In this document: positions 2,991 through 28,434 of the stretch, in pieces
Layout: each line of letters begins with the position of its first letter
How positions within the stretch are numbered: position 1 is the stretch's first letter
From: Crocosphaera subtropica ATCC 51142
Lineage (GTDB): Bacteria; Cyanobacteriota; Cyanobacteriia; Cyanobacteriales; Microcystaceae
NCBI RefSeq assembly: GCF_000017845.1
Contig: NC_010546.1
Span: 720,001-752,000 of the forward strand
Direction of reading: 5' to 3'
Length of the DNA stretch: 32,000 nt
Made by a program: the position numbers and the translations under genes
Notes under the pieces: generated by a model
Seen by the model: the letters and a program-made list of their open reading frames with translations, nothing else
The model's database searches: none
What the model was told of the DNA's origin: nothing

Positions 2991-2996
2991 AAAAGG

Positions 2997-3521: not shown

Positions 3522-3537
3522 AGAATGTTCTACTGAT

Positions 3538-3680
3538 ATCTTGCACCAGTACAGGAAAACTCAATAACCAAGGACAGAAAATCAATTCTTAAGAAGTTAC
3601 CGTCAAAATAAACTCTGTTTCCTGTTCCCCGTTCCCTGTTTTCTACCTAAAGGAGCTTCGTTTGAGCGAAGGTGCAAGAT
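3538..3680 (-). repeat. MITE-like repeat copy with 10-bp perfect terminal inverted repeat
   Basis: ATCTTGCACC (3538-3547) is the exact reverse complement of GGTGCAAGAT (3671-3680). The interior (AATCAATTCTTAAGAAGTTAC...CTGTTTCCTGTTCCCCGTTCCCTG) aligns by eye with the reverse complement of the 27587-27693 element. It lies in the CheW-MCP spacer. Confidence 0.5.
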
Positions 3681-3779
3681 GTGAGTCTAGCTGTTTTTTC
3701 TACCCCCTGAAACAGCATGGGGGTATCTCTATTCTACACAATTAAATCTTTAATCATAAATTTTATCAAAATTAAAACC

Positions 3780-6209: not shown

Positions 6210-6287
6210 TGGATTTATTTATCAATAATTATGTAGAAGTGATCTATATTTAACTCCTGCATTAGTTTTATATAATAGTGAGATAAA

Positions 6288-9143
6288 ATGATGGAAACTG
6301 AACAGCAAGTACGTTTGAATTTTTTAGAAGAAGCCGAAGCTTTCTTAGACAGCTTAGAATCTGTTTTACTACAATTATCTACTGTAGCCGTCGAAATCAA
6401 ACAACTGGACTTGGCTTTGCGTGCTGCCCATTCTCTTAAGGGAGGGGCTTCTATGATGGGGTTTAATATTTTAAGTCAAGTTGCCCATCGTTTAGAAGAT
6501 TTCTTGAAAATTATCCGTGTTCGTCATCAACATCAATTACTAAAAGTTGAAATCGAAACCTTACTATTGCAAGGGTTAGATGCTTTGCGTCAAATTAGTG
6601 AGTTTCATCAGCAAGGACAAGAAATTAATCCTATTTGGTTAGAAAAAAATGTTGATCCCATTTTTGATCAGTTAACTGAATATTTAGGCGAGTTACAATC
6701 TGAAGATGAAGACGCTTTATTATCTCAAGAAGAAGAGGTTAACCCTGCTTTATTAATGTTTGAAAATGGAGTAGAAACCCTCCTTGAACAGTTAGAAACT
6801 CAGTTAACTTTATTAGAACCAGAACAATTATATGACGAATTAATGAGTATTTCAGAACAACTGATTGAGTTTGGTTTAATGGCCGAAGTTAACTCATTTA
6901 TTAACTTATCCCAATCCGTTAAAGAACAATTATCATTGATTACCATTGAAGAGGTTTTTTCCTTTGCAAAAGAAGCCCTAGAAACTTGGCAGCGATCGCA
7001 CGCTTTAATTATTCTAGGCCGTTTAGATAATCTTCCTACCATATTAGACTTTTCTCCTAATTCTTCAGTTGAATTAAATTTACTAGATGAATTACAAGGT
7101 TTAGAAAACTTAGAGAATGATCCCTTAAAAGATATATCTTTTAGCGAATTAGCATCTAGTATGTTAGGAGAAGAAACATTTAATGATTTGCAAGAAGCAT
7201 TTACCCAAGCTATAGAAGAACAAAAAGAATCTTCTGAAGAATCAGAAAATAGTCAAAATCAATCAAATATAAAACAAAATCAAAGAAACTTTCGTATATC
7301 GGGTCAACAAATTTCTGCATTTAATCGCTTATTTGAAGACTTAATACTTGAAAGAAATAGTATTAATTTTAGAGTCGATCAACTTAAAAATTTTATGACC
7401 TTAATGTGGCAAAGAATGCAAAGCTTAGAAGATTCTAATACTTTGTTACGTCGCTGGTATGATGCCGTATCCTTGAATTACAAACTGCCTCAACTGGTTA
7501 ATCATTCTCCTCAACCTGTTGTAGCAAATGTCACTTTATCTTCTTTTAAAACTAATTTAAAAGAAAATTTTGATGTCATGGAGATGGCACAATATACCGA
7601 TTTACATTTAATTTCCCAAGAACAAATGGAAACCATTGTTCAATTACGAGAAGTAGCAACAGACATCGATTTAGGCTTTAAAGAACTTACTCAAAGTGTC
7701 AGCGAATTTAATCAGACAACCCACTTTTTGTATGATAATTTAATTCGTTCACAAATGCGTCCTTTCGGTGAGATTACACAACGGTTCCCTAGAGTAATTA
7801 GAGACTTATCAGTACAGTTTAATAAAACAGTAAAGTTACAACTAAAAGGAGAAACGACCTTAATTGATAGTTCAGTTTTGAACCATATAAATGATCCTTT
7901 GATTCATCTTTTACGAAATGCTTTTGATCATGGCATTGAAGATAAAAAAACTCGTTTAGAAGCAGGTAAAATTATAGAAGGAACGATTACGATAGAAGCT
8001 AATAATAGAGGCAATCAAACGATTATTACCGTAAGTGATGATGGTCAAGGAATTGATTTAAGTAAAATTTCTTCTCGTTTAATTTCTCAAGGAATGAGTA
8101 AAGAACAGGTTGAATTACTATCAGAAAAAGAATTACTCAATCAAATTTTTGAGCCAGGATTTAGTACCGCCGAGAAAATCAGCGAATTATCGGGTCGTGG
8201 CGTAGGAATGGATATTGTAAAGACGAATTTAACCGAAGTCCGTGGAGAAATAGCTGTAAATAGTAAATTAGGTTTAGGCACTACTTTTACCCTTACCGTT
8301 CCCATCAACCTATCCGTGTTGCGTGTCATGATAGTTGAAAGCAAAGGGATGGTCTTTGCGATCGCTGCTGACAGTATTAAAGGAGTTATTCAGCACCATC
8401 CCGAAGAAAATACAGTAATGTGGGGAGATAAACTGATTCCTGTCCTTAATTTACCCGAAAAATTTCACTTTTCTCGACCCAATAAACCCTTTACCATGAC
8501 AGGGACTCCGATGATTAACCGCAGTATTGCCTTAATTATAGAAGACGGTAACACCCTGCGAGGCGTTTCTGTAGACCGTTTCTGGGTTGAGGAGGATATG
8601 ACCGTTCGTCCCATTGCCACACCCATTCCTTTGCCTCCTGGCTTTAATCAGTCTATCATCTGGGGAGATGGTCGTGTGATTCCTCTGATTGATTTGGCGG
8701 AATGGGTTAACTCCTTTGATAATCATGCTCAAACAATAAACACTATAGAAGATAATTCTGTGGTTGTAGAACAAACATCCACCATTTTAATTGTAGATGA
8801 TTCGATTAATGTCCGTCGCTATTTAATGATTATGTTGAACAAAGCAGGGTATCAAGTAGAAGAAGCAAAAGATGGTCAAGAAGCAGTGGATAAATTATTC
8901 AATGGGTTACAAGTCAACGCTGTAATTTCTGACTTAGAAATGCCTCGTTTGGATGGATATGGGGTCTTAGAAATGGTAAAACAAGATACCCGATTTGAAC
9001 AATTACCAATTATTATATTAACTTCCCGTAGTCAAGAAAAACACCGTAAATTAGCCATGAATTTAGGAGCATCTGCTTACTTTTCTAAACCTTATACCGA
9101 ACAAAAGTTATTAGATACTTTAGAAGAGTTATTAATGAATTAA
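6288..9143 (+). CDS. cheA: Hybrid CheA-type histidine kinase (Hpt - kinase core - CheW domain - receiver), PilL/HmpE-like
   Basis: Hpt motif AAHSLKGGASMMG; N box DPLIHLLRNAFDHGIE; G1 VSDDGQGID; G2 GRGVGMDIV. A CheW-like region (VMIVESKGMVFAI...) and a C-terminal receiver (ILIVDDSINVRR, AVISDLEMPRLDG, IIILTSRS, YFSKPY) follow. Confidence 0.9.
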   Translation: MMETEQQVRLNFLEEAEAFLDSLESVLLQLSTVAVEIKQLDLALRAAHSLKGGASMMGFNILSQVAHRLEDFLKIIRVRHQHQLLKVEIETLLLQGLDALRQISEFHQQGQEINPIWLEKNVDPIFDQLTEYLGELQSEDEDALLSQEEEVNPALLMFENGVETLLEQLETQLTLLEPEQLYDELMSISEQLIEFGLMAEVNSFINLSQSVKEQLSLITIEEVFSFAKEALETWQRSHALIILGRLDNLPTILDFSPNSSVELNLLDELQGLENLENDPLKDISFSELASSMLGEETFNDLQEAFTQAIEEQKESSEESENSQNQSNIKQNQRNFRISGQQISAFNRLFEDLILERNSINFRVDQLKNFMTLMWQRMQSLEDSNTLLRRWYDAVSLNYKLPQLVNHSPQPVVANVTLSSFKTNLKENFDVMEMAQYTDLHLISQEQMETIVQLREVATDIDLGFKELTQSVSEFNQTTHFLYDNLIRSQMRPFGEITQRFPRVIRDLSVQFNKTVKLQLKGETTLIDSSVLNHINDPLIHLLRNAFDHGIEDKKTRLEAGKIIEGTITIEANNRGNQTIITVSDDGQGIDLSKISSRLISQGMSKEQVELLSEKELLNQIFEPGFSTAEKISELSGRGVGMDIVKTNLTEVRGEIAVNSKLGLGTTFTLTVPINLSVLRVMIVESKGMVFAIAADSIKGVIQHHPEENTVMWGDKLIPVLNLPEKFHFSRPNKPFTMTGTPMINRSIALIIEDGNTLRGVSVDRFWVEEDMTVRPIATPIPLPPGFNQSIIWGDGRVIPLIDLAEWVNSFDNHAQTINTIEDNSVVVEQTSTILIVDDSINVRRYLMIMLNKAGYQVEEAKDGQEAVDKLFNGLQVNAVISDLEMPRLDGYGVLEMVKQDTRFEQLPIIILTSRSQEKHRKLAMNLGASAYFSKPYTEQKLLDTLEELLMN

Positions 9144-14234: not shown

Positions 14235-14292
14235 GTAATAAGGTAGACATTGGATAATTTTTATTCTATTATGACAAAGGTGCAAAAATAAT

Positions 14293-14366
14293 GGCTCGGT
14301 AGCTCAGTTGGTTAGAGCAGGGGACTCATAAGCCCAAGGTCGGCAGTTCAAATCTGCCCCGAGCCA
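14293..14366 (+). tRNA. tRNA with CAU anticodon (elongator Met or lysidine-modified Ile2), copy 1
   Basis: Hand-folded cloverleaf: GGCTCGG TA GCTC AGTTGGTTA GAGC A GGGGA CTCATAA GCCCA AGGTC GGCAG TTCAAAT CTGCC CCGAGCC A. G1-C72 is paired, so it is not an initiator. No CCA is encoded. Confidence 0.9.
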
Positions 14367-14483
14367 TTTGAAGGTAAAGCATTGAAAACCAGATGTATAA
14401 GGCGATTCGAGCAATTAGATGGCTTCTGAAGTTATCAAGATTGTTAAAATTTGTTACGGTTAACTACCACCTTTGACTATCAA
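14293..14483 (+). repeat. Left ~190-bp direct repeat (attL region): tRNA + diverged spacer + conserved 24-mer
   Basis: Matches 25885-26074: the tRNA is identical, the following ~95 bp are alignable but diverged, and then TTAACTACCACCTTTGACTATCAA is identical (14460-14483 and 26051-26074). Confidence 0.8.
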
Positions 14484-14546: not shown

Positions 14547-15755
14547 GTGGCTAAAGTATCGGTCAAAAGCAAAGGTTCTCATGGTACGGTTGGCGTTGAA
14601 TCGTTTAGAGGTAAGTTACGTCTCAGATTACCTAGACATCTGTATGATGGTAAACAAAAATACTTATCGCTTGGTTTAGACGATACGTCAGAAAATCGTC
14701 AAATTGCTGAAGCTAAAAAAAGAGAAATCGAGTCAGATATAGCTAAAGATTTAGTCGTTAATGGTACTTTTGATCTAACTTTAGCTAAATATCGTCCACA
14801 GACTCATTTAAAACTTGTTCAGTCGATCCAGGTTCATCATAAAACGGAAGAACAGGTACTTTTAAGTGATTTGTGGAATAAATATACAGAATTTAAGAGT
14901 AGTCAGGTAGAAAAAACTACTTTAATTCGAGATTATGGAAAAATTGCTAAAAGAATCGCTAAATTACCGACACAAGATATTAACGAGGCGGTTGCAATTA
15001 GAGATTATCTATTGAAAGTTTATGCTCCTGAAACAGCTAAAAGAACATTAAAGCAGTTAAACGCTTGTTGTAATTGGGCGATGCGTTCTAAACTCATTAC
15101 ATCTAATCCGTTTGATGGAATGGCAAGCGACATTAAGAGTAAGAAAACTAGCAAAACATCTAGAAAACCATTTACACAGGATGAAAGAGATGTAATTATT
15201 CAAGCTTTTGAAGAAAATATCTACTGTTCCAAGTATTCTCGTGTTAATCACTCTTATTATGCACCCTATGTTAAGTTTCTGTTTTTAACGGGATGCAGAC
15301 CAGAAGAAGCGATCGCATTACAGTGGAAACATATTGAGAAAAATTACATTAACTTTTGTGAGGCAGTGGCGACGGATTTAAGAATTCGTAAATCTACCAA
15401 AACTCATGAATCACGCCATTTTCCGATTAATCGACAATTACAAGCTTTTTTAGCTGAAATTAAACCTGAAAATGCTTCTAATGATGACTTAGTATTTCCT
15501 AGTACAACAGGAATTGAAATAGATGCTCATAACTTTCTCAATCGTATTTGGAAACCAGTAGTAGAAGCATTAGTCAAGGAAGGTAAGCTTAAGCAGTATT
15601 TACCCCAATATAATTGCCGACACACTTTTATAACGATGGCACTAGAGAAAGGTGTAACAGTGGTGCAAGTCGCTAAATGGGTGGGGAATAGTCCAGAAAT
15701 TATAATGAAGCATTATGCAGGTACGATTCGACAGGTACAAGTGCCAGAATTTTAA
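14547..15755 (+). CDS. Tyrosine recombinase / phage-type integrase
   Basis: GTG start 8 nt after AGGAG (14534-14538). Catalytic-domain motifs LTGCRPEEAIAL (Arg), CRHTFITMALEKG (His-x-x-Arg region) and IIMKHYAG (Tyr). It lies next to the tRNA/att repeat. Confidence 0.9.
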   Translation: MAKVSVKSKGSHGTVGVESFRGKLRLRLPRHLYDGKQKYLSLGLDDTSENRQIAEAKKREIESDIAKDLVVNGTFDLTLAKYRPQTHLKLVQSIQVHHKTEEQVLLSDLWNKYTEFKSSQVEKTTLIRDYGKIAKRIAKLPTQDINEAVAIRDYLLKVYAPETAKRTLKQLNACCNWAMRSKLITSNPFDGMASDIKSKKTSKTSRKPFTQDERDVIIQAFEENIYCSKYSRVNHSYYAPYVKFLFLTGCRPEEAIALQWKHIEKNYINFCEAVATDLRIRKSTKTHESRHFPINRQLQAFLAEIKPENASNDDLVFPSTTGIEIDAHNFLNRIWKPVVEALVKEGKLKQYLPQYNCRHTFITMALEKGVTVVQVAKWVGNSPEIIMKHYAGTIRQVQVPEF

Positions 15756-16161: not shown

Positions 16162-16368
16162 ATGATTTTAGAAGGTAAAGATAAAATGATAGAAAGAGAA
16201 TCAAATACAATGGACTCTATAATAAGTTTTAGAATATTAGACAAAGATAAAACTAAATTAATGGATATTCTTGATCAAAAAAATATAACTCTTTCAAAAT
16301 TGATGAGAAATTTAATTAGAAAAGAAATTGCTAATTATTTTGTTGTGAAAAATAGTAATCAGGTTTGA
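16162..16368 (+). CDS. Small ribbon-helix-helix (CopG/Arc-like) DNA-binding protein, putative island regulator
   Basis: DSIISFRILDKDKTKLMDILDQKNITLSKLMRNLIRKEI fits a beta-strand/helix/helix RHH pattern. Alternative starts at 16186 and 16210. This is inferred from the pattern only. Confidence 0.45.
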   Translation: MILEGKDKMIERESNTMDSIISFRILDKDKTKLMDILDQKNITLSKLMRNLIRKEIANYFVVKNSNQV

Positions 16369-16645: not shown

Positions 16646-18844
16646 ATGAAAGAAATAACAATAACAATGAAAGATCATAATATTGTTCAAATGATAGAAA
16701 ACTTAAAAGATAATGATTTTCCTAATAATTGGCGTTTTATTCCAGTTGATAAAAATAAAGCTCCTATGACAACTAAAACATTTCAAGCAACAGGTTGGAC
16801 AAAGAAAGAAGCTTTAACTAAACAGGAAATAATAAGAGAACTCTGTGATTATGATGTTAATGCCGTTGGTTTAGCATTAGGTAAGCATAGCGTTAATGTT
16901 GTGGCAATTGATCATGATGGTGAAAGTTGTGACAAGTTAATTGAAGAATTAACAGGTTTATCTCTTAAAGAAGCTTTACCATCAACAGTTGCTTTTTCTA
17001 GTGGTCGAACAGGACGGTATCAAAAATTATATTCTGTATCGGAAGATATATTAAATCAATTAACCAATAAACAAATTAAAACAGGTGAAAAAGATGAAGA
17101 TGGAAAGAGTGAACAGCTTGAATTTCGAGTCAATGGATATTCAATAATAATGGGTTTTCACCCAAAAACTCAAAGCTATAGTTATCATTGGTTAGATGGA
17201 TGTTCACCACAAGAGATTGATATTACTCCATTACCTGAATGGTGGCTAAATATATGGCTAAATAGCGAAAAAACCAATAAAAAGGAGAAAAAGAAATCGT
17301 TAAGTAAAATTAATGATATTCCTAACGATTTAAGTTCAATTATATCTAAATGTCAAAATCTTTTGAGTCAACTTAAACCTTTCAGATGTGACAATTATGA
17401 TGATTGGAATAGAGTTGGCATGGCTTTACATCATGAAGCTGGTGACGATCCTATATTAAGTGAATTACTGTTAGATTTATGGACAAACTGGAGTCAAAAT
17501 TCTAATAAATTCAAAGACGGCGAATGTGCTACAAAATGGCAAAGTTTCGATAGTAATAAGGATAATACTGTTACATTAGGTACTTTAGTAGAATGGGCAA
17601 AAGAGGATAGTAATTTACCTCAGCAAAATTCTAAAAATACATTAGATGATGAACGTCAAGAATTCTATCAAATGCTTGATGATATTGATAAAATTTATGA
17701 GGAAGAAGATTATGGATTTCAGCAAGTTCTTTCAAGAAAGATAGCAAAAAAATATGGATATAATTCTAATATTAGCCAAATGTTAAAGGATTATTGGAAT
17801 GCAAATCCTAATCTACTTAAAAGTGACTTTATTGATATAAAAAACTATGTAAAAGATACACCTAGAATTGATTATTTAATTAGTAATCTTTTACCCACTG
17901 TGGGGTTAGGCATTTTTTATGGTGAATCCAATATGGGTAAAACAACTTTGTTATATAGTTGGATGATTGCAATTGCAACAGGTAAAGACTGGAATGGATT
18001 TAATACAATACAAGGTAAGTGTTTAATTTACCAGTTAGAGGAATCTCAGCCTGTTACCTCACAACGATTATCCAAAGCGGTTGATAGTCTGCCAGATAAT
18101 GCAATTTTAATCAAAAAAATTTGGAATATTGCTCAAATCCATTCTTTAAAGAAAGATGTAGCGAAGCATCAACCTAAATTGGTAATTATTGATAGTTTGA
18201 AAGCTGCTAGTGCAGGAACAAATAATGATGAAAATGACAGTCGTTTTGCTGATTCATTATATCAACTGCACCAAATATCTGAATCTTATCAATGTGCCAT
18301 TTTTGTAATTCATCATTGTAACAGTAATGGTGGTTTGCGTGGTTCTACTGCTATTAAAGCTGCGGTAGATACTGTTATGAAGTTTGGACGGGATGAAAAG
18401 GATGAATTACCTGAATTACAACGTCTTCTTACCATTGAAAAGTCACGAGCTTTAGATGAAAATCCAACACTTCTTTTAGAAGGTAGTGAGGATAATGTAC
18501 TCAGTTGGACATATTTAGGAACGTTCGATGGGAATAAAAAAGGAAAAAATTGGAGTAATTCAGTTGAATGTCAGCAATTTATTGATCATCATCCTAATCA
18601 GAAGTTCACAGTTGATGAGGTGTTGAATGGATTAAAAGAGAAAATTACCAACCGAGATACGGTGAAGAAGACTCTCAATCGTTTAGTTAATAAGGGTAAA
18701 ATTAACAAAGATGATAGCTTTGCGAAAAAACCTCTGTATTTTAGTAAAAAGTGTCCCAATATCAGTAGCCAGAGCGGTTCAAATGCAGATATAGCAAGTG
18801 TTTCGGCTATCAAGACAGTTACGGGACAGCCAGAAGAGGTGTAA
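16646..18844 (+). CDS. Replication protein: bifunctional primase-polymerase (PrimPol) + PriCT-2-like + RecA/DnaB-like (AAA_25-type) ATPase + C-terminal wHTH-like tail
   Basis: PrimPol N-terminus (NWRFIPVDKNKAPMT, AVGLALG..., VVAIDHDGE acidic motif). PriCT-like segment (YDDWNRVGMALHHEAGDDP...LWTNWSQNSNKF...KWQSF). Walker A GESNMGKTTLL and Walker B-like LVIIDSLK. C-terminal FTVDEVLNGLKEKITNRDTVKKTLNRLVNKGKI. Confidence 0.85.
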   Translation: MKEITITMKDHNIVQMIENLKDNDFPNNWRFIPVDKNKAPMTTKTFQATGWTKKEALTKQEIIRELCDYDVNAVGLALGKHSVNVVAIDHDGESCDKLIEELTGLSLKEALPSTVAFSSGRTGRYQKLYSVSEDILNQLTNKQIKTGEKDEDGKSEQLEFRVNGYSIIMGFHPKTQSYSYHWLDGCSPQEIDITPLPEWWLNIWLNSEKTNKKEKKKSLSKINDIPNDLSSIISKCQNLLSQLKPFRCDNYDDWNRVGMALHHEAGDDPILSELLLDLWTNWSQNSNKFKDGECATKWQSFDSNKDNTVTLGTLVEWAKEDSNLPQQNSKNTLDDERQEFYQMLDDIDKIYEEEDYGFQQVLSRKIAKKYGYNSNISQMLKDYWNANPNLLKSDFIDIKNYVKDTPRIDYLISNLLPTVGLGIFYGESNMGKTTLLYSWMIAIATGKDWNGFNTIQGKCLIYQLEESQPVTSQRLSKAVDSLPDNAILIKKIWNIAQIHSLKKDVAKHQPKLVIIDSLKAASAGTNNDENDSRFADSLYQLHQISESYQCAIFVIHHCNSNGGLRGSTAIKAAVDTVMKFGRDEKDELPELQRLLTIEKSRALDENPTLLLEGSEDNVLSWTYLGTFDGNKKGKNWSNSVECQQFIDHHPNQKFTVDEVLNGLKEKITNRDTVKKTLNRLVNKGKINKDDSFAKKPLYFSKKCPNISSQSGSNADIASVSAIKTVTGQPEEV

Positions 18845-19070
18845 ATAGTCGAACGTATCAAACCCATACACAGTCTATTATTCAAGCATTTTCAGCATCA
18901 GGATAATAACGGGACAGTGAATGCTGTAACAGGACAGTTGAAGCGTCCCACCATTTGGGGGGGAGATGCAATTGATAATTATGGGGACAAAATCAAAATG
19001 TCCTGATAGTTGTTCTGCTTCAAAAACGTTACAGGATAAGGATTCTAGCGTTATCGGGACATCAGGACAT
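18818..19070. repeat. Iteron-like array of (G)TTA(C/T)-GGGACA(G/T) motifs, candidate origin of replication
   Basis: GTTACGGGACAG 18818-18829; TAACGGGACAG 18907-18917; TAACAGGACAG 18927-18937; GGGGACAA 18983-18990; TCAGGACAT on the minus strand 18998-19006; GTTACAGGATA about 19028-19038; CGGGACAT 19055-19062; CAGGACAT 19063-19070. Confidence 0.45.
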
Positions 19071-19727
19071 GATCTATAGATAAATGAAGATGAAAAGTTT
19101 TATAGAGTAAATACAATTTACGTTTAGCGATCGCAGAATTGGTGAGAAGTAGGGGTTTAGAGCCTTTAAGTAGCTATTCTGATGATAAAAAAATAGAACA
19201 AAAAACTATAATTTTTTTAGTCAACAAATAGATAAAGAAAATAATGAATTAAAATCTTAAAATAATAAACCACATGAATAATTTAAACTTCTACTTTGAA
19301 TATCCATGTAGGTTAATGAGAAATATAATTGTTATACTCGATTAAATAAAACCATGTATATCCACTTTACATATCACAAAAAAACTGATACCCTAAAAAG
19401 ATTGGGGGGGTACTCTACTAACCTATGATTACAACACAAACAAAAGTAAAGTATGTTAACCTTAATTGATGGTGATCAGTGCTAGGCGTTAGGATAATTG
19501 TTAATAGATCAGTATTGTTAGAATCACTTATTTGAAAACACAAGTTTTTTTGATATGGTTTCTAAACTCAATAAAAAATAGTTCTTGATATAGGTATAGG
19601 TAATGGTAACGAATACATAGGTTTTGATTATTATTACTAATTACCGATTATTTTCTGATGAACAATTAGTGAGTTATTTTGAATCAAAAATCAAGCATCT
19701 CTAATGATTAGAAAATTTGCTTAGTGA

Positions 19728-19761
19728 TTTTACTATTACTTTTACTTTACTTTTACTTTAC
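19728..19761. repeat. Short tandem repeat TTTTACTATTAC / TTTTACTTTAC x2
   Basis: Read directly from the sequence: three adjacent 11-12 bp units in the non-coding gap of the island. Confidence 0.7.
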
Positions 19762-20361
19762 TATCTGTGTTATTAACTTAAAATTATAATCGAGAAATTG
19801 GATTGTAAATTTTCTTACCTATCAGACCAGTAACGGTGTGATAAGTAAGATTTATGGGGAAAGACAAATGGTTAAAATTCATTTTACAAAGAAAGTAATC
19901 TGTAGTATTTTCTTCTCCTCAAAACAACAAATGATGCGATCGCATGGTTTGACCAGTATGATGAGATAGAAATGGAAGAAGGAATGATTGATATTCTTGA
20001 AGCTTGCACGAGCTTTCTCAATTTAATCAATTATTGGCGCAATAAATTACGGTAAATAGCGATAATTTACCATAAATTGATAGATTAAGTCGAGAATCAT
20101 TGAATTTCTCGGCTTTTCCTCTATTACTATGATTAAGCAGAATAACGCAAAAATTGGATCGTTCGTTCCGCAATTTTAATAAAACTTTACAAAAGAAAAA
20201 GATGGGAAATTTGTGGAAGTTTCACAACGCTTGTTGGTGCAAATGAAAATGGTATTAGGATGATTTTGAGTTGTTTTAAAAATTCTTATCTAACATTAAT
20301 GATAGTTAACATCAGAATTTGGGAACACTATACAGAGAAACACTGATGGCAGAAACAATTT

Positions 20362-23300
20362 ATGTCAAATTTAGTTGGTGAACTCATTGCTGGTAAATAT
20401 GATCTATTAACCCAACTGGGAGAAGGGGGAAGTAGTGTAGTATATCTGGCTAAAAAGCTAGGGACTCAAGAACGTTATGCGATTAAAACGCTTTCTACCG
20501 ATGAAAAGAATGCCATAAAACTTTTAGAAAGAGAAACGCAAACTTTAAAACGTCTTAATCATCCTAATATCGTCAAGTTTATTGAAGAAGGTTATGAAGA
20601 ACGGCACAAACTTGTTTACTTAGTCTTAGAGCATTTAGATGGTCAAGACATAAAAACTTATTTTGATAGTAACATTGATTTGTCAACCAAACTTAATATA
20701 TTTTTGCAAATTATTGAAGGGATCAGTTATGCCCATTCTAAAAATATAATCCATAGAGATATTAAACCAGATAATATTCAAATTGTGGATACTGGTGAGC
20801 ATCCAGATGCTAAAATTTTAGATTTCGGCATAGCAATTATCACTACTACAATTCTAACGAATACGATTAGAAGTTATCATACTCCCTTGTTTTCTGCTCC
20901 TGAACAAATTACGCTTGACGGGGTTTCAAGGAATTCGGATATTTATTCTTTAGGAATGACATTTTTATATTTGTTATCAACTCAAGAAGCCAGAATTAAT
21001 TTTCAAGATGAACAAAATAAAAGCATACTTTATCAGTCTGCTCAAGAAAGCTTAAATAACATTAGTAATTCTGAAAAGTTAATAACTATTCTGACAAGTG
21101 CTACAGATATAGATCGTGAAAAGCGTCCTAAGATAGACAAACTTAGAAAAGTTCTTTGTGACTTTCAGGAAGAATTAGCTGATTCCATTCCTGTTGTCTT
21201 TAATATTACTCGTAAAGTAGAACAAGAGATTAATGATCAATATAACTATCAAAATGATCTTTTAAAAATCAAGAATCATCTTAAATCCTTAATTGAAGAA
21301 AATAATAATTCAATATACATCAAAAAAAGTCCCGATAAATATCAAAAGAGAGAAGATTCAATAACGGTAGAAATAGGGTTAGAAACTTCGCAAAAATTTT
21401 ATCGTGGATTTATTAACCTGCATAATCATAATTCTACTCAAATAACGATTATCTATGAGGTTTCACAGCCTCCTCATATACAGGAAAAAATATTTGAAAA
21501 TGGATTGTCTGTAAAAGTTAATCCCATTATTGAAATTGGCTCTGGACTTAAAAGAAAAACAGATTTATCAGAATTAATCAAGCAAATTTTACAGAAAGAA
21601 CAACAAATTGAAAATGAAATAAAAAATAACAAAATACTAAAAGCAACTTTTGAGCAATGGCAGTCTGTCATTGATATTGAAAAACAAATTATTAGTGACA
21701 GAAAGGAGACTTTTCAATATAAAGAAAAATTTCATGATCAGCAAAGACAAATGTTGATTGTAACCTTAACACAACCTATTTCAATCGAAGATTTTGAAAA
21801 AATCACATCTCCCCCTTTACCTGTTACCATATCTGTTAAAAAAGTTTCAGCATCTAATCGTCAAAAAGAAATACAATGGTCAATTGGAGATATTACTGAT
21901 GGAAATAAATCCCCCAATGGTGAATCAATTGACAAATTACACATTAGCATCGGGGATTTTTGTGATCCTGAAATTATAGAATCTATCTTAGATAAAGGAA
22001 AAATTGAAACAAATTTTAAAGCACAAGAATCTGAAATTGAAAAACGGCGTAAAGCCTTAAGAGAAATTCGATATGGTGATTCTGAAAATCAGAATTTGTC
22101 TAAGGTGATAGCCGATCCATATAATGTTAAGTTAATTGAACCTATTTTAATTCATCGCTTTTTTAATGAACAATTAGATGAATCACAGAAAAAAGCAGTA
22201 TCTAAGGCATTAGCTACTGAAGATATTTTTTTAATTCAGGGTCCGCCAGGAACAGGTAAAACTTCTGTTATTACAGAAATAATTTTACAAATTCTAAGTC
22301 GTTATCCTAATGATAAAATTTTAATTTCTTCTCAATCTAATGTCGCTGTAGATAATGTTTTAACTCGACTCGCTCGTGTTGAAGATAAAGAAATTAAGTG
22401 TATTAGAATTGGGAGAGAAGAGAAAATTGAAGAAGAAGCTAGACAATTTGAAATAGATAAAGCTATCATAACATGGCAAAATTCTATTACTTCTAAATCT
22501 TTAGCCTATTGGCAAGAGTATCAACAAAAAAATGAGGAACTGTTATCAGGTAATCAAAAAATAGCACAATTGGAAGATGTAAAAAATAAAAATCAAGAGT
22601 TACAAGTTTTGGCTAGTCGATTAACCCAAACAATTGCTAGATTTAATTCAGAGTTGACTATCTATAAAGATAACATAGCATCAGCCGACTTCTCTGATAT
22701 TGCTGTAGAATTAATTTATGAAAAGCTAGAACTAGAACAAAAAATCCTAAAAGTGGTTGAACAATATACGACTAAATTTGGTATAGAGTACCCTGAGCAA
22801 AAACTGCTTTCAACTTGGATTGATGAAGAGGATAAAGTCTTAAAAAGTATTTTAGGTGATAATCAGGAGAATTATCAAAAATTTATTGGATTAGAAAAAC
22901 TAAGTCAAGAGTGGAATGAAAAGCTTAAAAGAAAACAACAAAGTTTAATGCCTTTATTTATAGATGAAATAGATGTTGTTGGTGCAACTTGTTTAGGTGT
23001 AGCAAGATTTCAAGATCGTAATTTTGATTGGGTAATTATCGATGAAGCAGGAAGATCAACTGCACCAGAAACTTTTGTGCCGATGTCAAGAGGGAAAAAA
23101 ATTATCCTAGTTGGAGATCATCGACAATTACCACCAATGATTGATAAAGAGTTACAGGAAAGAGCGTTAAGTGAACAGGAAATTCAAAAAATAATTTTGG
23201 AAAGAAGTTTATTTGAATATCTCTATGAACAGTTGCCAAAAACGAATAAAATAACCTTAAATAATCAGTATAGAATGCACCCTCATATTGGTGATTTAGT

Positions 23301-23928
23301 GAGTGAATTATTCTACGATGGTCAAGTAGCTAGTAAATTGGTTAGCATTCAGGAAAAAGCACATAATATAACAATATTTGATAAAAGCATTTATTGGATA
23401 TCAACCAGTGATGTAGAAGAGGAAATATCTAAGGAAAGAGAAAATGGAAAAAGTAGGAGTAATCCTTATGAAGCAAAAATTATTAAAGAAGTTTTACTAA
23501 AAATTCAAAAAGATTGTGAATCTAACAACTTATATAAAAAGGTTGGTGTTATTTCAGCTTACCGTTCACAAATTAGTATTTTAGAATCTGCCATTGCCCC
23601 TAATAATAAAGAATTATGGAAAAATCTGCATATTATAATTCACACAGTTGATGCTTTTCAAGGAGGAGAATGTGAAATTATTGTCTACGATTTGGTTAGA
23701 AGTAATCGTCAGAAAAAATTAGGATTTACCTCTGATGATCGAAGATTAAACGTGGCTTTATCCCGTGCCAAGCAACTATTAATTATCGTGGGTAATGATA
23801 ATATGGCTTATCAAGGGAAAACGCCTAATAATCTAGCCAATCCTTTTAAACCATTGATAGAATATATTGATAGTAATAATAATTCTTGTTCTCGATTAAC
23901 ATCCAGTGCGTTTTCTAAAGAGGTGTAA
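20362..23928 (+). CDS. Ser/Thr protein kinase fused to Upf1-like SF1 helicase (COG1112-type; AAA_11/AAA_12); type I Mokosh-like helicase component
   Basis: Hanks kinase motifs: GEGGSSVVY, AIK (K42), HRDIKPDN (D133), DFG, SAPE. Helicase motifs: Walker A GPPGTGKT (aa 627-634, nt 22240-22263), VIIDEAGRS, ILVGDHRQLPP, NNQYRMHPHIGD, ISAYRSQ, VDAFQGGECEIIV, LNVALSRAKQLLIIVGN. Confidence 0.9.
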   Translation: MSNLVGELIAGKYDLLTQLGEGGSSVVYLAKKLGTQERYAIKTLSTDEKNAIKLLERETQTLKRLNHPNIVKFIEEGYEERHKLVYLVLEHLDGQDIKTYFDSNIDLSTKLNIFLQIIEGISYAHSKNIIHRDIKPDNIQIVDTGEHPDAKILDFGIAIITTTILTNTIRSYHTPLFSAPEQITLDGVSRNSDIYSLGMTFLYLLSTQEARINFQDEQNKSILYQSAQESLNNISNSEKLITILTSATDIDREKRPKIDKLRKVLCDFQEELADSIPVVFNITRKVEQEINDQYNYQNDLLKIKNHLKSLIEENNNSIYIKKSPDKYQKREDSITVEIGLETSQKFYRGFINLHNHNSTQITIIYEVSQPPHIQEKIFENGLSVKVNPIIEIGSGLKRKTDLSELIKQILQKEQQIENEIKNNKILKATFEQWQSVIDIEKQIISDRKETFQYKEKFHDQQRQMLIVTLTQPISIEDFEKITSPPLPVTISVKKVSASNRQKEIQWSIGDITDGNKSPNGESIDKLHISIGDFCDPEIIESILDKGKIETNFKAQESEIEKRRKALREIRYGDSENQNLSKVIADPYNVKLIEPILIHRFFNEQLDESQKKAVSKALATEDIFLIQGPPGTGKTSVITEIILQILSRYPNDKILISSQSNVAVDNVLTRLARVEDKEIKCIRIGREEKIEEEARQFEIDKAIITWQNSITSKSLAYWQEYQQKNEELLSGNQKIAQLEDVKNKNQELQVLASRLTQTIARFNSELTIYKDNIASADFSDIAVELIYEKLELEQKILKVVEQYTTKFGIEYPEQKLLSTWIDEEDKVLKSILGDNQENYQKFIGLEKLSQEWNEKLKRKQQSLMPLFIDEIDVVGATCLGVARFQDRNFDWVIIDEAGRSTAPETFVPMSRGKKIILVGDHRQLPPMIDKELQERALSEQEIQKIILERSLFEYLYEQLPKTNKITLNNQYRMHPHIGDLVSELFYDGQVASKLVSIQEKAHNITIFDKSIYWISTSDVEEEISKERENGKSRSNPYEAKIIKEVLLKIQKDCESNNLYKKVGVISAYRSQISILESAIAPNNKELWKNLHIIIHTVDAFQGGECEIIVYDLVRSNRQKKLGFTSDDRRLNVALSRAKQLLIIVGNDNMAYQGKTPNNLANPFKPLIEYIDSNNNSCSRLTSSAFSKEV

Positions 23929-23930
23929 TT

Positions 23931-25358
23931 ATGGCTAATCAAATCAAAGATTTTGAAAGCAAGATTCGTAAATATCACTCACTGCCTGAAGCTATAGTGA
24001 TTGATTGTAAACGAATAGGTTATCCTTTTTATGTTTTGTATCTTGATGTAACTTATTTAGTACAACGAGAATTAGAACTACTAGAAGAATTTGTCATGAA
24101 ATGTATTGATAATGGATTAAATAAATTGGAAAAAATTGCTAGTTTCTTGGGTATGGATAATAATGTAGTTGAAAAGACTTTATCAGAATTAATTTCAAAA
24201 GATTTGATTAAAAAAGAAGATATATTCAAGTTAACTGAGAAAGGTTCAGATGCTTTAAAACAACAAAAAGAATTAGCTCCTGTTTCGGATACTAAAACTT
24301 TTTATTTAGATGCTTTAAGTGGAAAGTTAATGGATTATTTTTACCTGAGTAAATTTGATAGTAAAAATAATCAAAATACTTCTATTGGTAAAATTATTAA
24401 AAAGCCACGAAAAGATCATGTAGAAGATATCATTAGTTATTTCGAGGATATTGAAAAATATTTGCAAAATCCTAATAATCCCCATGTTGAACTTATACAG
24501 GTAAATAGAATAGAAAAAGTGTATCCTGAATGGCATGAAATTTCATTGGTTTTATATAAAAGTAATCCTAAAGATCAAGAAATAGAGTATGAAATTTTCT
24601 CTAGAGATTCTATCCAAAAAGACTATAGAGAAACTATCGAAAAAATATATGCTGAAGGTAAAAAAATACTTGATCCTATTTTTCAAGATATAAAGCAGGA
24701 TAATACTACTAATGAATCATTTAATAAAATAGTTGAAAGCATCAATGATGAGGATGTTAGAAATGTAGAACAAATCAGTATAAAAATCAGTTCTCTCAGT
24801 GATCCAGATTCTTTTATAGAAACTCAAAATGACTCAGTTAAGAAAGAAAAATCTAAACTTGAGCAACAACTAAAAGAAATCAAAAATCAAACGAGAATTT
24901 CAGAGGTAGTTCATACTTATGAAATCAGAGAATATCTTTTAAAAGCCTTAAAAGAAGCTAAAAATAGAGTAATGATAGTTTCTCCTTGGATAAAAGGAAA
25001 TGTGGTTAATCAACAATTTATATCAACCTTAGAAGATAGTTTAAAACGAAAAGTAAAAGTGTATATTATATATGGAATAAAAGGATCAAGTTTTCAAAAT
25101 GATAATTGGTCAATTAAAAAATTAGAAAATTTAAGTGATAATTATCGTAATTTAAAATTTGAAAAAACAAAAAATAGTCATCGTAAACAAATTGTTTGTG
25201 ATGATAAATTTGCTATAGTAACTAGCTTTAATTTTTTATCATTTAGAGCAGATCCTAATTTAACATATAGAGATGAATTGGGAGTGGTTTTAAGAGATAA
25301 ACAAACTATTGAAGACTTATTTAACAGTGGGCTTGGTTTAATTCGCAGTGCTGAATAA
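23931..25358 (+). CDS. PLD-superfamily (single HKD motif) nuclease with N-terminal wHTH-like domain; type I Mokosh-like nuclease component
   Basis: The ATG lies 2 nt after the upstream stop, with GAGGTG at about 23918-23923 as the SD. HKD motif HRKQIVCDD (H417, nt 25179). PLD-fold flanks RVMIVSPWI and FAIVTSFNFLS. N-terminal LEEFVMKCIDNGLNKLEKIASFLGMDNNVVEKTLSELISKDLIKK resembles a winged helix. Confidence 0.85.
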   Translation: MANQIKDFESKIRKYHSLPEAIVIDCKRIGYPFYVLYLDVTYLVQRELELLEEFVMKCIDNGLNKLEKIASFLGMDNNVVEKTLSELISKDLIKKEDIFKLTEKGSDALKQQKELAPVSDTKTFYLDALSGKLMDYFYLSKFDSKNNQNTSIGKIIKKPRKDHVEDIISYFEDIEKYLQNPNNPHVELIQVNRIEKVYPEWHEISLVLYKSNPKDQEIEYEIFSRDSIQKDYRETIEKIYAEGKKILDPIFQDIKQDNTTNESFNKIVESINDEDVRNVEQISIKISSLSDPDSFIETQNDSVKKEKSKLEQQLKEIKNQTRISEVVHTYEIREYLLKALKEAKNRVMIVSPWIKGNVVNQQFISTLEDSLKRKVKVYIIYGIKGSSFQNDNWSIKKLENLSDNYRNLKFEKTKNSHRKQIVCDDKFAIVTSFNFLSFRADPNLTYRDELGVVLRDKQTIEDLFNSGLGLIRSAE

Positions 25359-25629: not shown

Positions 25630-25836
25630 ATGAATTCTGAAGCCAGCAGTAGTAATGAAGAAAAAAAAGTAATTGTGGCAATTTTGAACGATACCACAGA
25701 GCGATGGGATTATTTAACATTCGATACACGAGAAGAAGCGAGACAAGCAATTAACAAAGCTAGAAATGAAGGTAAAGCTGCGGTATTCTATAAAGATGAA
25801 AATAGCGATGATCAAAGTGCGCCACCAGAGCTATGA
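25630..25836 (+). CDS. Small acidic hypothetical protein at the right end of the island
   Basis: 68-aa ORF with no recognisable motif. Its TGA stop (25834-25836) is the first three bases of the TGACTATCAA repeat. Coding status is uncertain. Confidence 0.35.
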   Translation: MNSEASSSNEEKKVIVAILNDTTERWDYLTFDTREEARQAINKARNEGKAAVFYKDENSDDQSAPPEL

Positions 25837-25884: not shown

Positions 25885-25958
25885 GGCTCGGTAGCTCAGT
25901 TGGTTAGAGCAGGGGACTCATAAGCCCAAGGTCGGCAGTTCAAATCTGCCCCGAGCCA
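25885..25958 (+). tRNA. tRNA with CAU anticodon, copy 2 (identical to 14293..14366)
   Basis: Base-for-base identical to copy 1 over all 74 nt. The 5' flanks of the two copies are unrelated. Confidence 0.9.
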
Positions 25959-26074
25959 TTTGAAATCAAAAATCGAAAACCAGATATATTAAGCAATTCA
26001 AGCAATTATATGACTTCTCAAGTTATGCAAGTTGTTAATAATTATTGAGTTTAACTACCACCTTTGACTATCAA
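25885..26074 (+). repeat. Right ~190-bp direct repeat (attR region)
   Basis: Partner of 14293-14483. It ends with TTAACTACCACCTTTGACTATCAA, followed by host sequence GGGTGATCGC. Confidence 0.8.
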
Positions 26075-26242
26075 GGGTGATCGCTCATTGATCTTGTTCA
26101 AGTCATATCACCTTTTGAGCCTTTGCCATTTCCCCCTAACTTACCAAAAAGATGAAATAATAGAGAAAAATCAATCAGCAATGTAATAAAATCAAACTGT
26201 ACCTGAGTTAAATTCTCTCAGTTGTCATTACCATTCACTACA

Positions 26243-26905
26243 ATGCAATATGAAATTCGATATAAACCAGCTTTTGCTGCTATCTTCGTCACCTTAGCTC
26301 CTGGTGAAAGCATCATAGCCGAAGCCGGAGCGATGGCCAGTATGGATGGCCGTTTATCCATGAAAACAAAATTATCTGGGGGGCTTTTTTCAGCCTTATT
26401 ACGAAAATTTTTAGGGGGCGAATCCCTATTTGTCAATGTCTTTAAAAATCAAACATCTCAAGCCTTAACTCTGGTTTTAACCCAATCAATCATAGGAGAT
26501 ATTGAATGCTTAGAGTTAAGCGGAAATGAAATGTGTTTTCAACCAGGAGCTTACATAGCTAGTAGTCCTAAAATTGACTTAGGGGTACGGTGGGCTGGTT
26601 TAGCCAGTTGGTTTGCAGGAGAAGGATTATTTAAGTTAAAAGTCAGTGGTCATGGGAAAGTCTTTTTTGGAGCTTACGGCGGTCTAAGTAAACAAACCAT
26701 TACAGGAGAATTTATTGTTGATAATAGCCATTTAGTGGCCTACAGTCCCGATATTTCCATGAGTATTGGCTTATCAGGAGGATTAATCAGTTCTATGACC
26801 TCTGGAGAAGGGTTAGTCAATCGTTTAAAAGGTCATGGAGTCATTTATCTGCAATCTCGAAGTGTTAGCGGTTTACTGGGATTTTTACGCCCTAAAGTGA
26901 AGTAA
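26243..26905 (+). CDS. AIM24 / TIGR00266 (DUF124) family protein, paralogue 1
   Basis: MQYEIRYKPAFA..., AGAMASMD, FLGGESLFVNVF, FAGEGLFKLKVSGHGKVFF, GEGLVNRLKGHGVIYLQS. The ORF track begins at TTG 26222; ATG 26243 matches the starts of the paralogues. Confidence 0.8.
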   Translation: MQYEIRYKPAFAAIFVTLAPGESIIAEAGAMASMDGRLSMKTKLSGGLFSALLRKFLGGESLFVNVFKNQTSQALTLVLTQSIIGDIECLELSGNEMCFQPGAYIASSPKIDLGVRWAGLASWFAGEGLFKLKVSGHGKVFFGAYGGLSKQTITGEFIVDNSHLVAYSPDISMSIGLSGGLISSMTSGEGLVNRLKGHGVIYLQSRSVSGLLGFLRPKVK

Positions 26906-26910
26906 TAATC

Positions 26911-27588
26911 ATGGATATTCAATTAATACATCAACCCGACAGTGCGATCGCTAAAGTGATCTTAAATGCCGGAGAGGAAATTGTCGCACAAGCTGGTTCA
27001 ATGGTGGCGATGAGTGGATTTATTAACACCAGTACCACCCTCAGACAAGGAAAAGGTGGGGGGATTATGGGAGGATTTAAACGAATATTAGGGGGTGAAT
27101 CTCTCTTTTTAAGTGTGTTTCGCTCCCCAACTGCAGAAGGAGAGGTTTTTCTTGCCCCTAGATTGATGGGTGATATCTTAGTGTATGAAATGCAAGGTCA
27201 AGAATTGGTAGTACAAGCAGCCTCTTATTTAGCCTCTGCTAATGATGTAGACCTCGATTTAGGGTTTCAAGGGATGAAATCTCTGTTTTCTGGGGAATCA
27301 ATTTTCTGGTTGAGTGTGACAGGATATGGACCAGTCATTTTAACTTCCTTTGGCGGCATTTATGAAATCGACGTGGATGGGGATTATGTGGTAGATACGG
27401 GTCATATTGTCGCTTTTGAAAAAACGTTAGATTTTCGCATTGATAAAGCTAATTCGAGTTGGCTAGGGGCATTTTTTGGGGGTGAAGGATTTATTTGTCG
27501 TTTTCATGGCAAGGGTAAAGTCTATTGTCAAACCCATAACCCCGGTGGTTTTGGTTCTATTGTTGGTTCTCAATTACCGCCTAAATAA
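26911..27588 (+). CDS. AIM24 / TIGR00266 (DUF124) family protein, paralogue 2
   Basis: AGSMVAMS, ILGGESLFLSVF, FSGESIFWLSVTGYGPVIL, GEGFICRFHGKGKVYCQT. It starts 5 nt after paralogue 1. Confidence 0.85.
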   Translation: MDIQLIHQPDSAIAKVILNAGEEIVAQAGSMVAMSGFINTSTTLRQGKGGGIMGGFKRILGGESLFLSVFRSPTAEGEVFLAPRLMGDILVYEMQGQELVVQAASYLASANDVDLDLGFQGMKSLFSGESIFWLSVTGYGPVILTSFGGIYEIDVDGDYVVDTGHIVAFEKTLDFRIDKANSSWLGAFFGGEGFICRFHGKGKVYCQTHNPGGFGSIVGSQLPPK

Positions 27589-27693
27589 GTACCTGGACAA
27601 AAATCAACGTTACTGTGAAGTGAGCAGCGAGCAGAGGAAGCAGGGAGAAGGGTTACAGCTTGTTTACATTTTTTAAGACAGTTGATTATATTC
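27587..27693 (+). repeat. MITE-like repeat copy (reference copy of the family)
   Basis: Both ends match inverted copies at 9213-9344 and 29305-29432. An internal short inverted repeat AATCAAC (27602-27608) / GTTGATT (27681-27687) is present. The element begins inside the TAA stop of paralogue 2. Confidence 0.7.
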
Positions 27694-27735
27694 ATGTCCA
27701 ACTATTTAGTTCTTTGTTATTTCAGGTAAATTTAG

Positions 27736-28434
27736 ATGTCAAACATTACTTATCAAATTGAACATTCTCCTGCTTATGCTTCGTTAATTCTTGATTTACG
27801 GCCTCAGCAAACTGTTTTAGTAGAAGCTTCGGCGATGGCTGCAATGGATACCTCTGTGAAAATGCAATCTAAGATTAGAGGAGGATTAATGAAAGGTGTG
27901 GGTCGAATGTTAGGGGGTGAATCTCTTTTTATTAATCAATTTACAGCAAAAAATGATTCAGGAAGAGTTTATGTTTCCCCTGGAGTGCCTGGGGATATCC
28001 AACACTATTCTATCGAGAATCATTGCGGTTTATTGGTTCAATCATCGGGGTTTGTTGCCTGTAGCGATACGGTACAAATAGATACCCAGTTTCAAGGATT
28101 CAAAGGTTTTTTTAGTGGAGAATCTTTATTTTTATTAAGAGTAACAGGGCGGGGAGATTTTTGGTTTAGTTCCTATGGGGCTATTTTAGAAGTTCCTGTT
28201 ACGAAAGATTATGTAGTTGATACCGGTTATGTCGTCGCTTTTGAAGATACCCTAAATTATAATGTAGAAATGATTGGCGGTTTATCTTTTAGAAATTTAA
28301 AAACAGGAATTTTAGGGGGTGAAGGATTAGTTTGTCGGTTTAGTGGCAAAGGTCGTCTCTGGATTCAAAGTCGTGCTATTTATCCCCTACTCAATTTTTT
28401 ACATCCCTTTCGACCGACTAAAAGTAGTAATTAA
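27736..28434 (+). CDS. AIM24 / TIGR00266 (DUF124) family protein, paralogue 3
   Basis: ASAMAAMD, MLGGESLFINQF, FSGESLFLLRVTGRGDFWF, GEGLVCRFSGKGRLWIQS. Confidence 0.85.
   Translation: MSNITYQIEHSPAYASLILDLRPQQTVLVEASAMAAMDTSVKMQSKIRGGLMKGVGRMLGGESLFINQFTAKNDSGRVYVSPGVPGDIQHYSIENHCGLLVQSSGFVACSDTVQIDTQFQGFKGFFSGESLFLLRVTGRGDFWFSSYGAILEVPVTKDYVVDTGYVVAFEDTLNYNVEMIGGLSFRNLKTGILGGEGLVCRFSGKGRLWIQSRAIYPLLNFLHPFRPTKSSN

Follow-up and report, generated by a model that had tools for sequence, protein, structure and literature searches.

A probable type I Mokosh anti-phage system on an 11.6-kb integrase-bearing island at tRNA-Met in Crocosphaera subtropica ATCC 51142

The gene pair and the proteins it encodes

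We consider here a stretch of 32,000 nt from the cyanobacterium Crocosphaera subtropica (formerly Cyanothece) ATCC 51142 (contig NC_010546.1, forward-strand positions 720,001 to 752,000; the whole stretch is referred to below as the window), in which two adjacent genes very probably constitute a type I Mokosh anti-phage system. The pair is the principal cargo of an island of 11.6 kb that bears an integrase and lies at tRNA-Met. The first gene, mkoA (20362..23928, + strand; ACB50077.1 / WP_009545966.1), encodes a 1188-aa fusion of a Ser/Thr kinase with a Upf1-like SF1B helicase, and the second, mkoB (23931..25358, + strand; ACB50078.1 / WP_009545967.1), encodes a 475-aa protein that joins a winged helix-turn-helix (wHTH) to a phospholipase D (PLD) nuclease domain with a single HKD motif. 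Both open reading frames (ORFs) have exactly the limits and lengths given in an earlier interpretation that was made from the letters without database searches (hereafter, the sequence-only reading). The mkoA record is named 'serine/threonine protein kinase' and that of mkoB, to whose product (ACB50078.1) the window protein is 100% identical, 'unknown / phospholipase D-like domain-containing protein'; Mokosh appears in neither name. At the junction of the two genes (23920..23933, + strand), the mkoA stop codon TAA is followed by TT and then by the mkoB ATG, leaving a gap of 2 nt, and a Shine–Dalgarno (SD)-like GAGG lies within the end of mkoA at 23920-23923, 7 nt before that ATG, just as the sequence-only reading had described. 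Expression of mkoA and mkoB as one operon, which forms part of our interpretation of the island as a carrier of type I Mokosh, is in our view highly likely. In the homologue search, MkoA did not retrieve itself, and its best match was 76% identical; the 90% cluster to which it belongs is represented by a 396-aa fragment, and the missing self-match is a database artifact, not biology.

The kinase and helicase of MkoA are both recognized by sequence and by fold. The Hanks-type kinase domain (aa 13-261; 20398..21144, + strand) matches Pfam Pkinase (4.9e-44) and contains, at positions verified by script here and in MkoB, K42 (in AIK), E58, HRD at 131-133, K135, N138, DFG at 154-156, and APE at 179-181; these kinase residues are invariant in our alignment and retained in distant relatives, and Foldseek returns Stk1/PknB-type kinases and PknS for this domain, ranked after the helicases. 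The SF1B helicase core (aa 604-1146; 22171..23799, + strand) is covered by AAA_11 (604-928, 1.4e-60) and AAA_12 (946-1146, 4.9e-52), with Walker A, Walker B, and motifs III to VI all present: GPPGTGKT at 627-634 (including K633), DEAG at 894-897, GDHRQLPP at 918-925, QYRMHP at 969-974, QGGE at 1100-1103, and LNVALSRA at 1129-1136. A PDB sequence search with MkoA matches solved structures of Upf1/NAM7, IGHMBP2, DNA2, SEN1, and ZNFX1 (E 1e-39 to 1e-45 for the Upf1/NAM7 and IGHMBP2 sequences). Foldseek places Senataxin–RNA, IGHMBP2–RNA, Upf1–RNA, Sen1, Aquarius, and Dna2 at the top of its ranking (E 1e-35 to 1e-24), with the RNA-helicase structures of Senataxin, IGHMBP2, Upf1, and Sen1 at E 1e-29 to 1e-35. 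The complete Hanks kinase (K42, D133, DFG, APE) and the complete Upf1/DNA2-like SF1 helicase proposed by the sequence-only reading are thus borne out, each named residue and motif being found where it was expected.

In the AlphaFold2 (AF2) model of MkoA (pLDDT 83, pTM 0.65), the kinase extends to about residue 272 and is followed by a beta/alpha domain (276-392), a helix/beta/helix unit (403-570, made up of a helix at 403-447, a beta domain at 450-550, and a helix at 553-570), RecA1, and RecA2. RecA1 is interrupted in the model by an all-helical insertion (aa 691-868; nt 22432-22965, + strand), and the spacing between Walker A and Walker B is 260 aa, in keeping with the coiled-coil-like insertion of about 250 aa that had been noted previously. 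The middle region as a whole (aa 276-570; 21187..22071, + strand) has no Pfam match and is detectable by tblastn only within the close cyanobacterial clade described below. From the predicted order of secondary-structure elements and about 780 aligned columns, we infer that residues 403-570 form a Upf1-type stalk/1B module. The sequence-only reading had left some 330 aa unassigned; that description holds only in part, the segment being divisible into the beta/alpha domain (276-392) and this putative module.

The closeness of the helicase to Upf1, IGHMBP2, and Senataxin in both sequence and fold, together with a kinase of the standard Hanks type, could also be accommodated by a host housekeeping module for RNA surveillance or signaling, that is, a kinase-regulated Upf1-like RNA quality-control helicase with no role in immunity. 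We hold this explanation to be extremely unlikely, since the pair sits inside a horizontally acquired, AT-rich island with attachment (att) repeats, is patchily distributed with pseudogenized copies in several species, is strictly coupled to a nuclease gene, and matches the family profiles of a validated defense system.

That nuclease, MkoB, carries its PLD domain at the C-terminus (aa 323-472; 24897..25346, + strand), where Pfam PLDc_2 matches residues 336-462 (2.6e-10) and the single HKD motif (nt 25179-25202) reads H417-R-K419-QIVC-D424 by script check, in agreement with the single-HKD nuclease (HRKQIVCDD) seen in the sequence-only reading. Residues H417, K419, D424, and N434 are invariant in the alignment and kept in all relatives. 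In Foldseek searches of the PDB, NucT (6ehi) and Nuc (1byr) come first (TM to target 0.71-0.74), followed by mouse and fly Zucchini (4ggj and 4gel; E about 1e-6 to 1e-5, 12-15% identity), and the archaeal wHTH protein TrmBL2 aligns over a longer stretch (E about 7e-7), which we take to comprise a wHTH and a domain of PLD-like fold. A PDB sequence search with MkoB returned no significant match. The wHTH itself (aa 50-111; 24078..24263, + strand) is matched by Pfam wHTH models over 55-115 just under their cut-offs (25.4 vs 27 bits and 21.5 vs 25.5 bits) and by the PADLOC WH and CARF-HTH models. In the AF2 model (pLDDT 81), it is a three-helix winged helix with a beta wing, preceded by an N-terminal helix and a beta hairpin and followed by a beta-rich middle domain, a poorly ordered helical linker, and the C-terminal PLD domain. 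We considered whether this wHTH could be a novelty of the window protein, as the sequence-only reading implied, and rejected the idea: the N-terminus of MkoB aligns from position 3 of the family profile, and the published table labels are 'HTH-PLD MkoB' and 'Kinase-Helicase MkoA' (Millman et al., 10.1101/2022.05.11.491447).

Family assignment and relatives of the pair

Mokosh systems combine a gene for a COG1112 RNA helicase with a PLD nuclease; those of E. coli protect against phages, and defense is lost when either the helicase ATP-binding domain or the PLD active site is mutated (Millman et al., bioRxiv 10.1101/2022.05.11.491447). In type I, the system consists of two genes, the helicase gene also encoding a Ser/Thr kinase (STK) domain, which is the definition that the sequence-only reading had given. 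The window pair has this composition: MkoA unites a COG1112/Upf1-like SF1 helicase, its ATP-binding motifs intact, with a Ser/Thr kinase on the same protein, and a separate adjacent gene, mkoB, supplies the PLD (HKD) domain. Both proteins are also found by the family-specific profiles of PADLOC, MkoA (PDLC03920) at E 1.3e-220 in one alignment of residues 8-1177 with profile positions 6-1106 of 1112, and MkoB (PDLC03922) at E 5.3e-75, and these matches uphold the type I-like label that the pair had been given earlier. Pfam likewise returned all of the domains that had been anticipated (Pkinase, AAA_11/AAA_12, PLDc_2), and neither protein reaches any NCBIfam model. For E. coli H10407, whose system is experimentally verified, the N-terminal ~400 residues of MkoA and MkoB that Millman et al. 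list in their preprint supplement (10.1101/2022.05.11.491447) match the same two models, PDLC03920 and PDLC03922, and the H10407 and window proteins are therefore members of the same profile families. Standard defense-annotation tools would annotate the pair.

Two other classifications were tried and rejected. The model for the DISARM component DrmC (NF038319) gives 29.3 bits, far below its cut-off of 133, and no DISARM partner (drmA, drmB, or the methyltransferase) occurs in the window; type II Mokosh (MkoC) does not fit two ORFs separated by a stop codon with a kinase present, and the type I models score far higher.

The pairing of the two genes is a property of the family. A pattern scan with the MkoB alignment, taking one genome per species, yielded 77 loci, 65 of them with at least 3.7 kb of upstream sequence. 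In 57 of these 65 loci, the mkoB relative is preceded on the same strand by a gene for a kinase plus helicase, and the other 8 are partial or decayed copies; the gap between the two genes is mostly between -27 and +70 nt. The neighborhood comparison suggested with the sequence-only reading thus came out in its favor, and over a wide range, the loci belonging to Cyanobacteria, Acidobacteria, Latescibacterota, Alpha-, Beta-, and Gammaproteobacteria, Actinobacteria, Planctomycetota, Armatimonadota, and Bacillota. Two groups can be told apart: a close clade (47-78% identity) that contains the window pair and was encountered in cyanobacteria alone, and a more distant one (about 25-33% identity) to which the Scytonema locus of Millman and colleagues belongs. 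The kinase residues (K, E, HRD, K, N, DFG), those of the helicase (Walker A/B, Q, R), and the HKD motif are kept by nearly all intact relatives, which implies selection on each of the three activities. Across phyla, the genes remain paired in the same order and retain all three catalytic sets. A single H-x-K-x4-[D/E] match, as in the window MkoB, is present in 75 of 79 relatives, and the extra match in the other 4 is not a second C-terminal PLD domain; this set was seeded with patterns from the window family and is uninformative on how frequent double-HKD forms of MkoB are.

Decay is also seen among the relatives, with mkoB split in Limnospira and mkoA split or truncated at the loci numbered L013, L014, L023, and L027 in our set. 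Patchy distribution, location on a mobile island, and decayed relatives together amount to a population behavior like that of defense genes. In Limnospira platensis (L003-L005, 9027-17547), mkoB is divided into parts of 280 aa and 225 aa by about 840 nt, and the cassette is flanked by direct repeats of 300 nt (99%) and 190 nt (93%) within which a 184-aa hexapeptide-repeat gene occurs twice; the locus has the appearance of a copy in decay whose insertion produced a large duplication of the target. A further observation concerns the metagenome and Logan contigs with close homologues, many of which are only 5.3-6 kb long and hold just mkoA and mkoB (e.g., L006, 5599 nt); the assemblies seem to end at the cassette edges, perhaps owing to variable or repeated flanks.

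The island and its surroundings

The pair lies within 11.6 kb bounded by duplicated tRNA-Met genes. At the left junction (14292..14483, + strand), a tRNA-Met(CAT) at 14292-14367, identified by ARAGORN and Rfam, is followed by a repeated flank, and the right junction (25885..26074, + strand) consists of a tRNA-Met(CAT) at 25885-25958 with a flank 82% identical to the left one. The direct repeat proper is 80 nt long and 100% identical between 14293-14372 and 25885-25964, starting exactly at the 5' end of the tRNA, and it is over the ~103 nt beyond it that the two island ends are 82% identical. A tyrosine integrase with an arm-DNA-binding domain (14547..15755, + strand; Pfam Phage_integrase and Arm-DNA-bind_2; PHROG 1 integrase, 1.2e-46) begins 180 nt after the tRNA-Met, and a Prim-Pol/PriCT_2/AAA_25 primase-helicase (16646..18844, + strand; Pfam, with PHROG primase and primase-helicase families) is the putative island replicase. 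The island has a GC content of 0.25-0.36, whereas the 12-15 kb region immediately before it has about 0.37-0.47. A tyrosine integrase at a tRNA, repeats at both ends, and putative arm-type sites are all found here, as in tRNA-integrated elements, and the description of the locus by the sequence-only reading as an AT-rich, tRNA-integrated mobile island with the pair as main cargo stands. That reading also called the element self-replicating; the Prim-Pol/helicase gene is indeed there, whereas self-replication is only deduced from it.

The att repeat is unusual in that it comprises a complete tRNA-Met gene plus ~103 nt of downstream flank; since it spans the full tRNA and a diverged flank, the island carries its own complete tRNA and a diverged copy of the host flank. 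The nonamer TGACTATCA has six exact copies in the 32 kb, every one of them at an island junction (14474, 14485, 14526 on the minus strand, 25834, 25845, and 26065), and with one mismatch it gives 29 matches where 8.7 are expected, a number that no shuffle reached; the copies are probably arm-type binding sites of the integrase, which has an Arm-DNA-bind_2 domain. Half of the 12 window matches to RGGACAK (6 of them) cluster at 18823-19070, within about 250 nt, just after the replicase gene and beside very AT-rich DNA, and the segment 18823-20361 may be the replication origin of the island, with iterons. The 1.5-kb AT-rich stretch that separates the replicase gene from mkoA (18845..20361), in which the ORF list has no ORF of 50 aa or more, may in addition hold the mkoA promoter. 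A search of the whole window with Rfam returned the two tRNAs alone, and within this 1.5-kb gap it recognized no RNA family. Two ORFs of 68 aa complete the island, one between the integrase and the replicase (16162-16368) and one after mkoB (25630-25836); among both there is no family assignment beyond one weak PHROG match, and neither was found in any related locus outside ATCC 51142. The first could be a small regulator or excisionase.

A 1.5-kb non-coding stretch between the pair and the gene upstream of it, simple consensus scans that detected no terminator or strong promoter, and the frequent decay of relatives are what one would expect if the pair were a silent relic, intact-looking but unexpressed or inactive in ATCC 51142. 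We judge this to be very unlikely, given that neither ORF is truncated, that no catalytic residue has been lost, that the 2-nt junction with its SD-like site has been preserved, and that the att repeats are 100% identical over the tRNA, an identity that suggests the island was acquired recently.

The integrase and the Prim-Pol gene of this island do not occur together at any of the related loci, and Mokosh is therefore a cargo acquired by it; a search of viral contigs for relatives of the Prim-Pol replicase found nothing. We also considered whether an 11,572-nt Logan contig that equals the island (L007) might represent its circular, excised form, and rejected this: the unique sequence of the contig amounts to 11,512 nt and the repeat adds 30 nt twice, as a k=31 assembly break at the tRNA repeat would produce.

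Because mkoAB is the only sizeable cargo of this small integrase and Prim-Pol element, the pair might be thought to serve the island itself, whether through addiction or stabilization or by attacking competitors among mobile elements (plasmids, other islands, satellites), and not to counter lytic phage. The verified E. coli copy is likewise on an integrase/relaxase island, at ssrA, and the breaks in many assemblies coincide exactly with the cassette edges, which would be in line with such a role; yet in most relatives the pair is chromosomal, with no integrase or replicase within 10 kb, and so is not tied to this type of island, the E. coli Mokosh systems protect against phages, and an addiction role leaves the conserved motor motifs of the helicase unexplained. 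On balance, we regard service to the island as improbable and retain the interpretation of mkoAB as an anti-phage system carried as island cargo.

Both flanks of the island are housekeeping in character. On one side lie a chemotaxis-like operon, GCS2, SpoU, and a LysM-M23 peptidase, and on the other three AIM24 paralogues and an M48 peptidase. The AIM24 paralogues (227, 225, and 232 aa) stand in tandem at 26222-28434, directly downstream of the island, and the M48 peptidase gene overlaps the third. The genes of the chemotaxis-like operon, upstream at 1292-9143, which encode response regulators, CheW, a methyl-accepting chemotaxis protein (MCP) with HAMP, and a hybrid CheA, are unrelated to the Mokosh pair.

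Proposed mode of action and comparison with known systems

As a type I Mokosh system, the pair might work as follows. On infection, the MkoA helicase would load on phage-derived single-stranded nucleic acid, its substrate most likely being RNA or an RNA:DNA replication or transcription intermediate, as in the proposal of Millman et al. (10.1101/2022.05.11.491447), and would then translocate 5'->3' on ssRNA or ssDNA at the expense of ATP, as the Upf1, IGHMBP2, and Senataxin families lead one to expect. Because MkoB has only one HKD, it would have to dimerize to form its active site, two HKD motifs coming together in the manner of its family members Nuc and Zucchini, and the wHTH may tether or position the nuclease on nucleic acid. 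MkoA would recruit or license MkoB, so that the nucleic acid would be cleaved and phage development stopped. The kinase would most likely gate the nuclease step, through autophosphorylation or through phosphorylation of MkoB or other targets, which is a speculative part of the scheme. Our literature search found no mechanistic study of Mokosh.

Several considerations weigh against this interpretation of the window pair. Phage protection has been demonstrated for E. coli Mokosh systems only and for no cyanobacterial one, and the verified systems of H10407 and SEC470 are architecturally unlike the window pair, so that function is being transferred across real differences. The type I system of Bacillus nealsonii, which has a canonical kinase and is the only other system of that kind that could be checked against the table of Millman and colleagues, is marked there with 'x' where verified systems have 'v', and we read the 'x' as no defense detected. 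The substrate, the role of the kinase, and the contact between MkoA and MkoB enter the scheme as inferred steps throughout. Finally, no other defense gene lies within the 32-kb window, and the enrichment beside other defense systems that had been suggested as a check is thus not seen at this locus. Such enrichment is a statistical property of a family and is not required of every copy.

The interest of the locus is accordingly modest. The sequence-only reading had implied that a cyanobacterial copy and its carriage on an integrative element were, like the wHTH, new; Table S8 of Millman et al. already lists the sister strain Cyanothece ATCC 51472, and H10407 Mokosh is also island cargo, beside an integrase at ssrA. 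The cyanobacterial host, the island carriage, and the wHTH of the nuclease are already within the published picture of Mokosh. What sets the window pair apart from the verified E. coli prototypes is the combination of a canonical kinase with a single-HKD nuclease, and this intact copy, in a diazotrophic model strain whose genetics is well studied, lends itself more cleanly than those prototypes to asking what role the kinase has and how far the parallel with MOV10L1 and Zucchini goes. The locus also adds one more case of a small integrase-borne island ferrying a single defense system. The pair is a sensible experimental candidate; it changes nothing in what is known.

Among proteins of known structure, the best fold matches of the MkoB C-terminal domain, Nuc (pKM101) and NucT, are small periplasmic or secreted nucleases that, unlike MkoB, have neither a wHTH nor a helicase partner. 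TrmBL2, a regulator of the TrmB family with a wHTH and a PLD-like fold, shares a larger aligned stretch with MkoB than they do; it is known as a non-catalytic chromatin protein. No solved Mokosh structure was found, the PDB sequence search with MkoA returning only Upf1-like helicases and kinases.

In animals, the piRNA factors MOV10L1/Armitage and Zucchini/PLD6 likewise combine a Upf1-like 5'->3' RNA helicase with a single-HKD, dimeric PLD nuclease. This analogy, which the sequence-only reading had drawn, is indeed published, in Cury et al. (bioRxiv 10.1101/2022.12.12.520048); it had been credited to Millman et al., in whose preprint (10.1101/2022.05.11.491447) we found only a comparison with Upf1. 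The animal pair differs in having no kinase or wHTH, in being anchored at the mitochondrial membrane, and in working with PIWI proteins. The likeness is one of domains and folds (12-15% identity) and does not in itself argue for a shared pathway.

Within Mokosh, type II uses the same helicase and PLD families in a single helicase-PLD gene without a kinase, whereas the window has two genes and a kinase, and the MkoC model matches window MkoA and MkoB only weakly (1.5e-33 and 1e-17). The cyanobacterial entries of Table S8, Cyanothece sp. ATCC 51472, Scytonema hofmanni UTEX 2349, and Microcoleus sp. PCC 7113 (10.1101/2022.05.11.491447), are of the same type I class, the first being the sister strain of the window organism. 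At the Scytonema locus (L046), a kinase plus helicase gene lies upstream of a single-HKD MkoB, as in the window; the proteins of the Scytonema-type clade are ~25-33% identical to those of the window and have no detectable similarity in the middle region.

The verified type I systems of E. coli differ from the window pair. In SEC470, MkoA is 1652 aa long with an extra N-terminal region. In the enterotoxigenic E. coli (ETEC) strain H10407 (NC_017633.1, 3053165-3058610), there are likewise two adjacent, co-oriented genes, the kinase-like plus helicase gene first and the HTH-PLD gene second, and the MkoB proteins share the HKD context H-x-K-I/Q-I-V-C-D; the helicase blocks are 31-33% identical to those of the window, and outside the helicase core identity is at noise level. 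The 1215-aa H10407 MkoA matches AAA_11/AAA_12 but not Pfam Pkinase at E <= 0.01, nor does its N-terminal fragment match Pkinase, whereas the window kinase is canonical; aligned to it, albeit weakly (E 0.24), the H10407 protein has HRH-L-D (HRH at 155) for HRD-I-K and TGF for DFG, and a degenerate kinase is a reasonable reading of these residues. H10407 MkoB has 602 aa and two HKD motifs (H368, H554), each aligning to the single PLD domain of the window family, against 475 aa and one HKD of the Nuc/Zucchini kind in the window MkoB.

These differences raise the doubtful but still appreciable possibility that the window pair represents a distinct branch of type I, distributed over many phyla and defined by a competent kinase and a single-HKD, Zucchini-like MkoB, in which the kinase would gate assembly of the MkoB dimer on helicase-bound phage RNA and defense would depend on phosphorylation; the E. 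coli prototypes, with an apparently degenerate kinase and a tandem double-HKD MkoB, would have neither feature. No experimentally verified member of a sub-type with an active kinase and a single HKD was found in the literature that we looked at. In genomic setting, the two systems share a layout: the H10407 locus (L087, 3051082-3062451) runs from ssrA through an integrase, MkoA, MkoB, and several ORFs to a relaxase, and in H10407 as in the window Mokosh is the first cargo after an integrase at a tRNA-type gene (ssrA vs tRNA-Met), on an island that carries a relaxase in the former and a Prim-Pol/helicase in the latter.

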